Source: Dictyostelium discoideum (lineage: Eukaryota). Taken from it: DNA of 64,000 bases. Shown here piece after piece: positions 8,636-14,147 of the stretch (its first letter is position 1; each line of letters starts with the position of its first letter). Position numbers and translations under genes: made by a program. The notes under the pieces are model-generated. The model worked only from the letters and a program-made list of their open reading frames with translations. It had not been told where the DNA came from and searched no databases. The stretch covers positions 3,168,001 through 3,232,000 of the forward strand of contig CM000155.2 in NCBI GenBank assembly GCA_000004695.1. Direction: 5' to 3'.

Positions 8636-8720
8636 AGTCTTTTTTATATGAAAAATGAAATAATCAAAAAAAGAGATTGTTGTTGTTTGTTTTTTTTCGA
8701 TCTGTCAACTATTAATTTTT
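8636..8720 (-). mobile_element. Solo TRE5-like 5'-terminal module directly abutting the putative target-site duplication of the full-length copy
   Basis: ttttaagtcttttttatatgaaaaatgaaataatcaaaaaaagagattgttgttgtttgttttttttcgatctgt, followed by caactattaatttt (8706-8719). The same module and 14-mer occur at the 5' end of the full-length element (14030-14113). Confidence 0.4.
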
Positions 8721-8773
8721 TTTTTTTTTTAATAACATCACTCAATTTGAGTGTGTTCTAGGAGAGTTTATTT

Positions 8774-8807
<34 letters not shown>

Positions 8808-8930
8808 CTTTTTTTCTTGTTATTCTTATTTTTTTTTTTATTATTATTATTATTATATTATTATTATTATTATATTATTATTATTATATTATTATTATTA
8901 TTATATTATTATTATTATTATTATTGTTAT

Positions 8931-8970
<40 letters not shown>

Positions 8971-8975
<5 letters not shown>

Positions 8976-11900
8976 AGTAGTTGGTGTTATATGAGCAGTA
9001 TGGTATGAAGTGTTCCGGGATGTTTATGGTCATGAGTTTCGAGTTCCAGTTGTGGCTGAATTTTTCGAGTCTTCTTTTTATTGATGCGGTCCGATTGATT
9101 GACTCTCGGTTATCAGTGCATCTTAGTTCTTGACGTAGTTGTTTTTCTACTATCTTTCTTGTTCTATCCCATTCGGCATCTCTCGCTTTTTTGATTTTAT
9201 GAATTATTTGGTTCTCTGTTATTATTGTAGTGTTATCGTTGAATTTTATTTGATTTCTTCTGTACCATATCGATTCCATAATGGCTCCTATCAGATTTGA
9301 TGAGAATGGTGTGAGTAGTTTTCCGAGAACTTTTTCGCTCCATGGACCGTGGTAAGTGTTGTTGGAGTCTTTACAGACCTTTTGATAGATTGAGTCGATA
9401 TTCTGTTTTATTGATTTGCATTCGAAGAAGATGTGCATAGACGATTCTTCTTCTTTACATGAGTGGCAATTCTCCCCATGGTGTTTTGGAAGTGCCTTGA
9501 GTAGATATCTCCATGCTAAGTCTCTTCCTTTGATAGTTGTGATTGATCTGGCTTCTCTGAATGGTAGAATTGGGTGATTAATGTTCTTTTGAATCAGTTT
9601 TTGACCTGTTGTTGGCTGGTGTTTGTTCCATCCCTTGTATTTGATATCCATCATGTTTCTATAGATTACTTTTAATTTTTGTTTGTTTTCGTATTTGGGT
9701 TTGACTTGGTTTAGTTTGAGAGTTATTCGCTCTCTTGGGTGGTGCAACAACTTCCAGGCTTTCCAGCATTTGATGTGAATCCTTGATAGTGAGTTTTCTT
9801 TTTCCGACTTCCAGACTTCCATATGTGGAGGGCAGTTCTGGTCGTCTTTTTCTCTGAGGTATTGTTCGTATATCCATGCTTTCTGGGCATTGGATCTGGT
9901 TGCCATATTCCAGAGTTCCAGGCCTCCAATTTCATAGTCTCTTCTGCTCCTTTCTTTTGAGATAGCCCACCTGTCCCCTTTGAATAACATGTTGGCATTA
10001 ACGTTCTCCAGTTTCTTTATGTCATTTATTTCGTTGATGTATAGTTGGAATGTTAGTTGGGACAGCAGGTATGATTTGAGGATTGTGATTCTACCTTTTA
10101 GCGTTGATGACACGCTCGAATAGCATTTTGTGAGGTTTTCCAGTTTGTTCACCGTATCATCTACTTTGCTTATTACACCTTTGCGGTTGAAGAAAAAGCC
10201 AAGATATCTTTCTTCTTCTTTCGCCCCAATTGTCTTATATTTGGTCTTTATCTTTGGGTTTTTAGTGATGCACACACATTTATTATCGTTTATTTTTGCT
10301 GCTGTGGCTTGGCAAAATTTTATAACTTTCATATCCATTTTATCTGCGTCATCTATGTTACTGGCTAGTGTGACTGTGTCGTCTGCATATTGTCCAATCT
10401 TCATCGAATTGTTCTGATTGAGTTTTATGCCTATTATGGTATTGTCTTTTCTTATTGATGTTGATAAGCATTCACATACTATAGCGAAGAGAGTTGGTGA
10501 AATTGGGTCGCCCTGTTTTGTACCTCTTCCTGCTCTGAAGGATTCAGAGAGTTGTCCATTTACCATGACCCTTATGTTGGTGTTCGTTAACATGCTTAGT
10601 ATTGTGTTTGTTATTTTCCGAGGGAACTTTAGATGGTTTAGAGTCCTTATTAACGCTTTATGAGATATTGAATCGAAGGCTTTTTCGAAGTCATAAAAGG
10701 TGATTATCGTGTTTCTATCACTCTTTTCCATTGCTAAATCCAAAGCTATAATGTTGTTGTGGAGTAGCCTTCCTGGTATAAAACCGTTCTGGTACTTTGA
10801 GATTATGTTTGGCAGGATTTTTAGTATTCTATTGTTGATTATTTTTGAGTAGATTTTGTAGTCTACGTTGAGTAACGTTATTGGTCTTCTGTTTGAGATT
10901 TCCAAGACATCCCCTTTACCTTTGTATATTGATGTAAGGATACCGTTCTTGAATTCTGTTGGAATTTCATTGTTTAAAAAGAAGTTGAATAGTTCTGTGA
11001 GGATTGGAATTAGTTTGTGTTGGTGGATTTTATAGAATGAAGATGTTATTCCATCTTCTCCTGGTGATTTACCTTCTGCTATCTTTTCTATTGCTAGCTT
11101 AACCTCATATTCTTCGATTCTGTCTTCCATCTCTGTTAATTTTTTTTTATCTATTGGTGGGTTCCAGGTGCTTAGAAGTTCTGTATGTGTTTCTTGGTCG
11201 CATTCTTTCTCTTTGAAGAGTGTCTCGTAATATTTTCTGAAGCAATCTGTTATTTCTTTTTGTTCTGTTTCGATTTTTCCATTGGATGGGTTCTTTATTC
11301 TGTGAATCTGGGAGCTCGAGTCTCTTTTTTTAAGAATAGATGTAAGGAGATTTGATGCTATTTCTTTATTGTTGATGTAGTTGATTGAGCTTTTGATCAT
11401 TCTGTCTATTCTTTCTTCTTCTTGAAGTATTGTTATTTCGTTCGATATTGTTTCTTTTTCATATTTGTTTTTTGTTTTTGTGTGTTCATTTGCTAGATTT
11501 GATAGCGTTTTTTTTCTCTCTAGTATTCTTTTCTTTTCTGTTGTAATGCATTGTTTTTTTATTTTTTTTTTGAACTTAATCCAGTATTCCGTTATGTTAA
11601 TGTTTTTTCTTTTGGTTTCCTGGTAGTGGTCGATTATTTTTTCTATCTTTTTTATTGTTTTATCTTCTTTAATTATTATTGAGTTCATTTTCCATAGGGG
11701 TGATTTGTATATTTTTGTGAAATTTGGTATTTTGAAATCCATCACTACTATGTTATGGTCTGATTTGTTTATTTTATCGATTATCTTGTACGAGTGATTG
11801 AGTTGGTGCATCTTTGTTGATAAGAATGTTCTATCGATTAGTTTATCTTTGAAGGTTGTTTTAGTTGTTGAATTTGGTAGTATTTCGGTGAGTCCTACTT

Positions 11901-12402
11901 CCATCATTAGGAATTCTATTGTTTCATTTTCTGTGAATTTTCTCTTATCGGATGATCCATCTTTGAACTTGATTTTTGCATATTTGTTGATGTTAAAGTC
12001 ACCAGTAACTATGTCTGCCTGTTCTAGATCTTCAAGGGAAATATTGTTTGAAAACCATCCTTTTCTTCTGTCATATGAGGCTGGTGCATAGATGCAAATT
12101 ATGTTGATTTCCATATTGTTTAGAATTGCAGTAAATTTTAAGATTCTGCCTTCTTTTTCTTCCAAGTTTTTAATTTCTATTTGTTCTAGGTGATTTATTG
12201 CCATTACTCCTTTTCCTCTTGCTTCTTTTCCTTTTCCTCCTGTTGAGTAATGGTTTTTGATTTGCGCTAGATTTTGATCCTTTTTTAGATTTGTTTCTGT
12301 TAGTATTGATATATCAGGTTTTATTAGGTTAATTGTATTTTTTGTCTGATTCATGCTTTTGATTGTTGAGCAACCTTGGCAATTCCAGGTCATTATTTTT
12401 AT

Positions 12403-12405
<3 letters not shown>
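8971..12405 (-). CDS. Retrotransposon ORF2: apurinic-like endonuclease, reverse transcriptase and C-terminal zinc-finger polyprotein (1144 aa)
   Basis: Track ORF; motifs as above (endonuclease N-terminus, RT F/YxDD box YADD, C-terminal C..C...H..C). Confidence 0.75.
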
Positions 12406-12449
<44 letters not shown>

Positions 12450-12476
12450 GTTTTTTTTTTTTTTTTTTTTTTTTTT

Positions 12477-12507
<31 letters not shown>

Positions 12508-12513
<6 letters not shown>

Positions 12514-13872
12514 AAATGAGACAGATGGAAGTATGTCTTGGAGTACTTTGGGCAATTTGTCTCTTAGTGCTGCTTCCATTAGATCTGATTCTTCCTTTGT
12601 TATTTTAGTTGGAGTTTTGTAAGGTGTTGATATTTCTTGGTGATTAGTTGTTGGGTTTGGAGATGAGTTGGATCTTTTTCTTTTTACTGTCTCTGGGGTT
12701 GCTGGAGATTCTGGATTTTGGATAGGTGACATTGTTTGTCTTTTTTTGATTGAGGCTAACCTTGGGGTTTCCTTCTTTTTTTGGTTATTTATTTTTTCTT
12801 CAAAAATTCTGTTCTCTTCTTCATTTTCGAACATCTTTCTTACCACTTCTAATGCTTCTTCATCTTCAGTTAACTCCATTTTCCTTTTCTCTTTGCTGTC
12901 AACACTATATGTTACTGTTATTGGTGGGACACGAAGTACTTTTCTCTTTTCAATATTGTTTATTGTGTTTGTCGTTTCTGTCGTTGTGGTTGTTGTAGTT
13001 GCTCTAATTGTTGTGGGTTTTTTATTTTCAATTTCGTTTTCCTTTTCTTTTTCGTTTTTGCTCTTGTCTTTGATGTTGTCATTATTGATTTCTTTATTAT
13101 TTTCTTTTCTGTTTTCTATTTTGTTTTTGTTGTTATTTTTTGATTCGCTAGTGTTTTTATGATTGGATTCTTCTTTTGATTTTATGTTTATTCTTGTGTT
13201 TTCCTTTATCTCGGGATTTGGTAGTTCCGTGATTTTTGAATTTTCTGAGATTTCGTCTTCGATTTCCTTATTTGTTTTTCTTTGATTTTTTGTTTCTTCT
13301 GTTGTAGTGAGGAATAGTATTGTTATGTGTTTACAATGTATTAGCTGGTCTTTGTGCTCTGGACTGATAATTGAGTTGAATGAGTGTATTATCAGGTTTT
13401 CACCTAAATTATCTAATTTGATTATTTCCAGTCCTTCTTCATGCAATGTTTTTTCTACTATGTCCATTGATTTTTCCCAGTTGAATGTTTTGAAGATCTT
13501 TTTTGGTTTTATTATTGCTCTGTGAACTCCTTTTAGTACTCCGTTGAAAACGTTAGAGTACTTGATTACTTGAGTTCTGCAGTCAGTGAGGATTTTGAAT
13601 TTATTCTTACTTATTATTATCTTATCATCTCCTTGTAAATGAATTTCCAATTCTGCTTTTAAGTTGTTGGAAATCTCATCTGGGATATTGATCATGAATT
13701 TATATTGTTTTAGTTCAATTTGAGTGTGGTATATTGCTTCGCTTATTTTATCAAGTGTTCTGTACGTATTTTTTAAATATTTGAACTTTGTTCTGAGTTC
13801 ATTTGATTTCTTGATTTTATCTGCCAATGTTTCTGTTGATTCTGTCATTATTGTATTTGCCAATTTATTCAT
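12508..13872 (-). CDS. Retrotransposon ORF1 (454 aa), Lys/Glu-rich nucleic-acid-binding-like protein
   Basis: Track ORF immediately 5' of ORF2 on the same strand, separated from it by a ~100-nt A-rich tract. Its N-terminus is homologous to the short ORFs of copies A and C. Confidence 0.6.
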
Positions 13873-13951
13873 TTCTTTTTTTTTTCTTTAAAATCTTTAT
13901 TCGACTTTAAAAATTTAAAATTCTGGAAATTCCCTGAAAGAATGTTTTCGG

Positions 13952-14026
<75 letters not shown>

Positions 14027-14147
14027 TCTTTTTTTTATATGAAAAATGAAATAATCAAATAAAAAAAGTGTTGTTGTTGATGTTTTTTCTCTTACTCTCA
14101 ACTATTAATTTTATAAAGTAACTTTATTACAACTTTTCATCAAAAAT

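Follow-up and report, generated by a model that had tools for sequence, protein, structure and literature searches.

A 14-nt repeat upstream of a Dictyostelium discoideum tRNA-Asn gene as the probable target-site duplication of successive TRE5 insertions

Organization of the tRNA-Asn upstream region

In the 64-kb stretch of the Dictyostelium discoideum genome analysed here (GenBank assembly GCA_000004695.1, contig CM000155.2, positions 3,168,001 to 3,232,000; referred to as the window), a tRNA-Asn gene is preceded by two TRE5-type non-long terminal repeat (non-LTR) retrotransposons, a short and a full-length element, each of which is bracketed by exact copies of the 14-mer CAACTATTAATTTT (Table 1). 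On the plus strand, the order is 14-mer, T11 followed by the rest of the 758-bp short element, 14-mer, T11 followed by the rest of the 5379-bp full-length element, 14-mer, 34 nt, and the tRNA gene. Both elements are located on the minus strand, with their poly(A) tails pointing away from tRNA-Asn and their 5' ends towards it; each has an 11-nt poly(A) beside one 14-mer and its 5' end against the next. An identical direct repeat thus lies directly outside both ends of either element, its 3' copy following straight after the poly(A). The window also contains a tRNA-His gene (5627-5698, plus strand), which, like tRNA-Asn, was identified by ARAGORN.

The 14-mer matches the window exactly three times, always on the plus strand, and none of 100 dinucleotide-preserving shuffles of the window yielded three matches. 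Because tRNA-Asn starts at 14147, the proximal copy occupies positions -48 to -35. Between the middle and the proximal copy the identity extends to 15 nt (TCAACTATTAATTTT, 8705-8719 and 14098-14112), i.e. the 14-mer and one preceding base. The original prediction had interpreted the repeat as a target-site duplication (TSD) which is remade whenever a TRE5 element inserts into the tRNA-proximal slot, and our analysis supports this, since the 14-mer follows each poly(A), abuts each 5' end, and is absent from the ends of other copies. We therefore consider it very probable that the 14-mer is a TSD generated by target-primed reverse transcription (TPRT) and remade by successive TRE5 insertions into one site, 48 bp upstream of this tRNA-Asn gene.

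Predicted and observed coordinates agreed exactly for the middle copy (8706-8719), whereas the outer copies, which had been placed at 14100-14113 and 7935-7948, are present one base lower. The oligo(A) next to the middle copy, expected at 8721-8733, is indeed found, but as a run of 11 T (8720-8730) after the TTTT of the 14-mer. A supposed near copy at 7762 (CAACTATTATTAGT) turned out to match the 14-mer in just 11 of 14 bases and lies at no element boundary; the informative near copies are those of TATCTATTAATTTT at 7796 and 7892, each sharing 12 of 14 bases with the 14-mer. All three 14-mers and both near copies recur at this locus in an independent assembly (L003, GCA_054883475.1), indicating that the pattern is not an assembly artefact. 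The five junctions were compared by anchored printing, as an alignment with MAFFT had misaligned the repeats.

Table 1. Features of the insertion stack upstream of tRNA-Asn; positions refer to the window
Feature	Position	Strand	Remarks
tRNA-proximal 14-mer copy, CAACTATTAATTTT	14099-14112	+	-48 to -35 of tRNA-Asn; abuts 5' end of full-length element
Middle 14-mer copy	8706-8719	+	Between 5' end of short element (8705) and poly(A) of full-length element
Distal 14-mer copy	7934-7947	+	Just past poly(A) of short element (T run 7948-7958)
tRNA-Asn(GTT)	14147-14221	+	ARAGORN; landmark defining the integration slot
Full-length non-LTR retrotransposon, TRE5-B type	8720-14098	-	5379 bp; two intact open reading frames (ORFs)
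Poly(A) of full-length element	8720-8730	-	T run, T11
ORF2 of full-length element	8971-12405	-	1144 aa; reverse transcriptase and weak endonuclease match
ORF1 of full-length element	12508-13872	-	454 aa
A-module-like 5' end of full-length element	13992-14097	-	
Short non-autonomous A-B-C element, TRE5-A type	7948-8705	-	758 bp
Parts of short element	7948-7958; from 7959; ~8106-8402; 8403-8705	-	Poly(A); C-module; B-module; duplicated A-module
Copy B, oldest TRE5-A-type copy	6501-7010	-	C-B-A modules; degenerate TSD
Fragment F, 5'-truncated, TRE5-A type	7810-7891	-	Last 63 nt of C-module and degenerate poly(A)
E0, inferred micro-insertion	7909-7936	-	A12 tail (T run 7909-7920) and 16 nt, sense TTGTTATTCCCTGTTC
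Y2, left part	7574-7809		236 bp; begins TGTTAGC
Y2, right end	14113-14131		...AAGTAACTTTATTACA; ends 15 nt upstream of tRNA-Asn
Y1	7059-7569		TGTAATAATGG...CGTTCATTACA; 511 bp

Probable assignment of the bracketed elements to two TRE5 families

The full-length element shows the organization of a TRE5 element, with two ORFs, an ORF2 product that matches reverse transcriptase (RVT_1, E = 5e-37) and, weakly and below the cut-off, an endonuclease, and an oligo(A) tail. Its ORF1 product is 100% identical to D. discoideum DDB_G0293632. The ORFs do not overlap, the spacer between them (12406-12507) consisting of about 100 nt that are almost pure A on the sense strand. TRE5-B is distinguished by the lack of a C-module and of a 3' B-module, while its site preference is the same as that of TRE5-A (PMC3159450). 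Since the 3' untranslated region (UTR) of the full-length element contains neither module, the element fits TRE5-B and not TRE5-A, as named from published structural descriptions rather than from a consensus alignment. The TRE5-B consensus comprises 5971 bp, and a single full-length intact TRE5-B has been described for the reference genome (PMC5006619); judging from its sequence, the element in the window appears to be an intact TRE5-B, for which the literature count is that one.

In L003, the same TRE5-B copy has a length of ~6.3 kb and carries six tandem A-module units of ~198 bp (6812-7918), vs one unit and a 69-nt T run in the window (13955-14098). This difference reflects either a repeat collapse in the assembly of the window or real copy-number variation.

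In the C-module of the short element, all four published positions of TRE5-A.1 (T15, C26, A35, and C38; PMC3159450) match, and they do so in one register only. Its B-module region (8127-8449) is 94% identical to a segment (4665-4987) which directly adjoins the remnant of an ORF2 C-terminus (5156-5551); a B-module right after ORF2 is a hallmark of TRE5-A.1. On the basis of a 3' C-module as in TRE5-A.1 and a B-module of the post-ORF2 kind, the short element, copy B, and fragment F are regarded as TRE5-A derivatives; going by sequence, TRE5-C, which is 78% identical in the C-module, is a possible alternative for these TRE5-A-type copies. The designation "TRE5-A.3" was not found in the literature searched. 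The two elements bracketed by the 14-mer are thus TRE5 copies, as predicted, but not of one family. They have only ~100 bp in common, namely the 5' A-module, and their 3' UTRs are unrelated.

The 14-mer is not element sequence

An exact-protein look-up of ORF1 pointed to four places in GCA_054883475.1, namely L003 and three further loci, L001, L002, and L004, where copies 99% identical to the full-length element are located at tRNA-Gly, tRNA-Arg, and tRNA-Phe, respectively. The 14-mer occurs at none of these three loci. Each copy has flanks of its own; the copies in L002 and L004, which begin with GAGTAAGAG, have, moreover, flanking repeats of their own, with 5' junctions located 46 and 41 nt away from the tRNA. 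The 14-mer is likewise absent from the other short-element copies in the window (6501-7010, 4665-4987, and 7821-7892). Since three other TRE5-B copies are embedded in different flanks, the 14-mer is not a part of the element. The possibility that it is internal to the TRE5 consensus, raised with the original prediction as the point on which its reading hinged, was checked in this way through other copies. A terminal consensus sequence could be suspected because the 5'-terminal A-module regions beside 8706 and 14099 are alike and because 7912-7945 shows an ungapped 74% match to the 3' end of the C-module. That match, however, consists mostly of a T run, and the 14-mer lies beyond the poly(A) tails and beside two unrelated 3' UTRs; together with its absence from the three long copies, copy B, fragment F, and the 4665-4987 fragment, this leaves a consensus origin with a negligible probability.

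Position of the insertions and mechanism of integration

With a 5' junction at -48, and with both elements on the strand opposite to the tRNA gene and their 5' ends facing its 5' end, the stack shows the placement typical of TRE5. The position fits the published distance of 47±3 bp (PMC5391098). Likewise, the 14-nt duplication is within the range of 10-16 bp published for TRE5 TSDs, including those of TRE5-A, with which the original prediction had proposed to compare it (PMC9012585). Serial integration into the same site about 48 bp upstream of the tRNA gene, with displacement of older copies outward, is supported.

While junctions, orientation, and distances are observed, the steps of nicking and priming are taken from what is known of apurinic/apyrimidinic endonuclease (APE)-type non-LTR elements and of TRE5 (PMC5391098, PMC5911963). 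The element endonuclease would nick the plus strand at TTTT/A, between -35 and -34, and the T-rich 3' end exposed at the nick would prime on the poly(A) tail. A cut of the second strand 14-15 nt farther from the tRNA, at -48/-49, and subsequent fill-in would then duplicate the interval. TFIIIB/TFIIIC bound to the tRNA gene and contacted by the ORF1 protein would set the position (PMC5391098, PMC5911963). A newcomer would cut the same two phosphodiesters in the proximal copy, because the RNA polymerase III (Pol III) complex on the tRNA gene places the cuts, thereby remaking the TSD and moving the older element outward.

Elements of two TRE5 families gave rise to the same 14-15-nt duplication. 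This bears on an alternative origin of the arrangement, in which insertion-bearing chromatids would have undergone unequal crossing-over or tandem duplication, instead of a second integration into an occupied site. Three identical tandem repeats would also be expected from unequal exchange within the 14-bp repeat. However, the elements share no more than the A-module, and a route on the DNA level would nonetheless presuppose that two insertions had independently acquired the same TSD and that, in a haploid genome, recombination had then taken place within 14 bp. Moreover, the same pattern recurs at other tRNA genes (see below), and de novo tandems have been observed experimentally (PMC5391098). 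We consider this alternative highly improbable.

Orthologous loci were located by means of the neighbouring Tudor-domain gene in the D. discoideum natural strains L006 and L009 and in the D. cf. discoideum isolates L007 and L008. At the tRNA-His gene of the window, the 16-nt sequence TTTTTGGCCATGAATT occurs twice, at 5543 and 5577, flanking only T15 and GAA; a TRE5-A.1-type copy truncated at its 5' end (B-module and ORF2 C-terminus, 4665-5551) meets the left repeat with that end, and the right repeat is 34 nt away from the tRNA gene. In L007 (13948-14062), the 14-nt sequence CACTTGGAACGAAC occurs twice, flanking T14 and a 40-nt C-module-like fragment. An A-module 5' end lies directly beside its left copy, and its right copy is again 34 nt away from tRNA-Asn (-48 to -35), the flank sequence being unrelated to that of the window. 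A short TRE5 element at tRNA-His of L006 is accompanied by a 13-nt duplication at -48 to -36. At tRNA-Asn, L006 contains a truncated element (14320-14917) with a TRE5-B-like 3' end at -39 and the TSD ATGTTTTTT, vs an empty site retained in L009 (14323-14370), indicating that the slot has been used independently in different lineages. The tRNA-Asn segment of L007, which thus holds a TRE5 tandem of its own, is inverted relative to the neighbouring genes.

At three sites of unrelated sequence (tRNA-Asn and tRNA-His of the window, and D. cf. discoideum tRNA-Asn), the TSD edge nearer to the tRNA gene is thus located 34 nt from the tRNA +1. The nick equivalent to that at TTTT/A is at GAAC/TAGG in L007, where there is no T run, suggesting that distance matters more than sequence. 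A tentative extension, which we regard as possible but rather doubtful, is that the Pol III complex fixes both strand cuts to the nucleotide, independently of the element family and largely of the local sequence. If this were general, overlapping TSDs in TRE stacks would provide an ordered record of integration at nucleotide resolution, and the TSDs of such stacks could be used to measure in vivo where TFIIIB has its upstream edge.

Older layers and order of insertions

Overlapping older duplications distal to the short element suggest, on sequence grounds, that the slot has received four successive insertions. On both sides of fragment F, the 16-nt sequence TATCTATTAATTTTAT is present in exact copies (7796-7811 and 7892-7907). 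Moreover, CTATTAATTTTATA, which corresponds to the present target shifted by 3 nt into its right flank, is found only at 7895-7908 and 14102-14115. The interval between 7908 and 7934 holds T12 and GAACAGGGAATAA and is inferred to represent a poly(A)-tailed micro-insertion with a 14-nt duplication of its own, termed E0. Fragment F would have inserted first, with the TSD TATCTATTAATTTT(AT), and E0 second, with the TSD CTATTAATTTTATA. The 5'-terminal CAA of E0 would later have furnished the 14-mer with its first three bases, which would explain why the older and the younger repeats differ in these three bases only. The short element would have followed as the third insertion, with the TSD CAA plus CTATTAATTTT, and TRE5-B as the fourth, whose TSD probably comprises 15 nt, one of them taken from the short element. 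A 15-nt duplication would make the TRE5-B 5' end GAGTAAGAG, as it is in L002 and L004. The 5' junctions of all four insertions are located at -45 to -48.

The oldest layer among the TRE5-A-type copies is copy B, whose degenerate TSD matches in 12 of 14 positions (AAAAAAATGGTAAC at 6487-6500 and AAAAAAATCGTACC at 7021-7034) and whose 3' junction is common to strains L006 and L009. Being farthest out and common to other strains, it fits the notion that older elements lie further away from the tRNA gene.

The final arrangement would be the same if TRE5-B had already been in place when the short element entered the distal TSD copy, 5.4 kb away from the tRNA gene; three identical TSD copies carry no age signal. 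TRE5 integration, however, is tied to a region ~47 bp upstream of Pol III genes (PMC5391098), and it is the order short element before TRE5-B under which the 15-nt repeat yields the TRE5-B start seen in L002 and L004. In addition, the ORFs of TRE5-B are intact, and the most distal copy is the oldest one, which other strains have as well. The reversed order is therefore improbable.

A more serious competitor concerns E0. The sequence TATCTATTAATTTTATA-T12-GAACAGGGAATAA-CAACTATTAATTTTATA might be a native imperfect repeat of Y2, the insertion described below, in which case fragment F would have landed ~90 bp upstream and only two TRE5 events would have occurred at the -48 slot. A distance of 90 bp is still within the range published for TRE5-A (PMC5006619), and the second Y2 copy (in L001), which is interrupted exactly at this place, cannot decide between the two possibilities. 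On the other hand, two 14-nt repeats separated by T12 and 16 nt show the pattern that marks an insertion with a poly(A) tail, and an equally short insertion, T15 and GAA with a 16-nt TSD, is present at tRNA-His. L001, moreover, has T, not A, before CTATTAATTTT, as does the inferred ancestral form. We regard a native repeat as unlikely, though clearly less so than the reversed order, and prefer the interpretation of E0 as a micro-insertion.

The target apparently lies inside an older insertion

After removal of the TRE5 layers, Y2 (TGTTAGC...TTATTACA) amounts to ~255 bp that begin at -16 and extend outward, and the TRE5 target is located 33 bp inside it. The terminal 31 nt of Y2 recur 18 nt upstream of tRNA-Gly in L001, where they are split by TRE5-B within 1-2 nt of the same point. 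The homology of the L006-L009 loci to the window stops ~13 nt upstream of tRNA-Asn, and the 14-mer occurs in none of these four loci, in which tRNA-His and tRNA-Asn are spaced by 1.2-3.0 kb, as compared to 8.5 kb in the window. By this comparison, the target of the 14-mer is apparently no native flank of tRNA-Asn but lies inside the older insertion Y2. The original prediction of a host flank was hence correct in that the 14-mer is target DNA and not element sequence, but not in the sense of a native tRNA flank, as the homology to the orthologues ends at -13. Since the target lies within Y2, paralogous and orthologous tRNA-Asn loci are unusable as empty sites. The first 9 nt of the 14-mer (CAACTATTA) are also found within Y2 at 7762-7770, possibly by chance; the oldest TSD copy is situated 34 nt to the right of them.

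Several points weigh against the proposed series of insertions. As the L006-L009 loci lack Y2 altogether, they offer no empty site for the target, and the only other Y2 end available for an empty-site comparison, that in L001, is also occupied by TRE5-B. For the 16-nt body of E0, no second match was detected in the window or the nine loci, and 7892-7936 could instead be native Y2 sequence. The order of short element and TRE5-B rests on the known tRNA-proximal targeting and on one common nucleotide. Because the TSD ends with TTTT beside a T run, its length is ambiguous, in the range of 10-15 nt. The Pfam match of ORF2 to Exo_endo_phos is weak (E = 0.0018; 18.5 bits vs a curated cut-off of 24.5), and the names TRE5-A, TRE5-B, and DGLT-A (see below) are based on published structural descriptions, not on consensus alignment.

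Solo LTRs of DGLT-A, also referred to as "H3R", which integrates in a Ty3-like manner ~15 bp ahead of tRNA genes, have an LTR consensus of 265 bp and are located 13-18 bp upstream of tRNA genes (PMC5006619, PMC6101501). With its length, its TGT...ACA ends, and its distances of 15 nt from tRNA-Asn and 18 nt from tRNA-Gly in L001, Y2 may, by analogy, be a solo LTR of the DGLT-A type. A 5-bp repeat (ACTTT at 7054-7058 and 14132-14136) is present as well; it flanks, however, the block of Y1, AGCT, and Y2 rather than Y2 alone. Y1 and Y2 are unrelated in sequence. The primer-binding site of DGLT-A (TGGCGACATCGTCTTTC) was not found in the window or the loci, and no internal region is present. Both Y1 and Y2 have TG...CA ends and end 14-18 nt upstream of tRNA genes (Asn, His, and Gly), and both may be DGLT-A/"H3R" solo LTRs.

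A copy of Y1 with a 4-5-bp duplication is located at -14 of tRNA-His in L006 (18593-17403); the corresponding site in L009 is empty. The segment 7235-7469 of Y1 is a near-perfect palindrome of 240 bp, with 89% identity between its arms, most of which is missing from the shorter Y1 copy of L006. The 18-mer GAATTGGAATACGACGTT (5588 and 7545) was considered as a duplicated flank of tRNA-His, which was rejected in view of the empty site in L009; it is the end of the mobile element Y1, inserted independently near both tRNA genes. Likewise rejected was 5' transduction from the window locus as the source of the 31-nt flank in L001 (7188-7219), since the junction in L001 is a different one and agrees with the presumed ancestral form. 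Collections of metagenomes and of prokaryotic genomes, scanned for the exact pattern, yielded no match to the Y2 end, a permissive blastn search of 7011-7933 against the other loci returned AT-rich noise only, and an exact-protein look-up of a neighbouring 143-aa gene retrieved the same assembly only.

Relation to known systems

Tandems of TRE5-A and of tagged TRE5-A^bsr elements upstream of occupied tRNA genes have been reported (Spaller et al. 2017, PMC5391098; Barth et al. 2022, PMC9012585). De novo TRE5-A copies are often found at exactly the same nucleotide, and 80% of them are within 47±3 bp (PMC5391098). The stack described here resembles these tandems in having the 5' ends directed towards the tRNA gene at ~47 bp, TSDs in the published size range, newcomers located proximal to resident TREs, and repeated use of the exact position. 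It differs from them in being a natural, fixed stack instead of a set of tagged de novo events, in that two TRE5 families made the same duplication, and in that both junctions of every layer are visible, so that the order can be read from the overlapping TSDs. Since tandems of TREs, their duplications, and repeated integration at an identical position have all been published, the novelty is low; the tRNA-Asn stack is an instance of already known TRE5 behaviour, and the current understanding of TRE5 elements is unchanged. Its contribution is modest: one duplication from two families, an ordered record of insertions, and a target within an older tRNA-targeted insertion.

The junctions also resemble those produced by L1-type TPRT with an APE endonuclease, with poly(A) placed on a T-rich nick (TTTT/A in this case), a staggered second cut, variable 5' truncation, extra 5' nucleotides, and TSDs, but here the distance to a Pol III gene, and not mainly the sequence, determines the site. 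In yeast, layered clusters of Ty elements and solo LTRs upstream of tRNA genes likewise reflect repeated targeting of the same Pol III gene and form a stratified record of insertions. In contrast to these clusters, the layers at tRNA-Asn are mostly non-LTR elements which are stacked without mutual disruption, apart from the 1-3 nt that enter the next TSD.

The stack is a natural confirmation of position-specific TRE5 integration, in which newcomers insert between the tRNA gene and the element already present and take only 1-3 nt of the older copy. This mode of insertion explains how a gene-dense haploid genome absorbs repeated insertions at one safe site. For annotation purposes, at least seven tRNA-targeted insertions, which belong to three or four families, are stacked at the locus.

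Other insertions near the tRNA genes

Right after tRNA-His, L006 contains a foldback insertion resembling miniature inverted-repeat transposable elements (~17000-17310), with long terminal inverted repeats, which is absent from the window and from L009. Downstream of tRNA-Asn, at a distance of 61 nt, the window harbours a TRE3-type element on the plus strand (14283-19277); its poly(A) occupies 19261-77, and CTCTCAAATATC forms its TSD (14271-82 and 19278-89). Its ORF2 is ~32% identical to that of TRE5-B. The site is empty in L006 and L009, where the homology jumps from 14285 to 19282.

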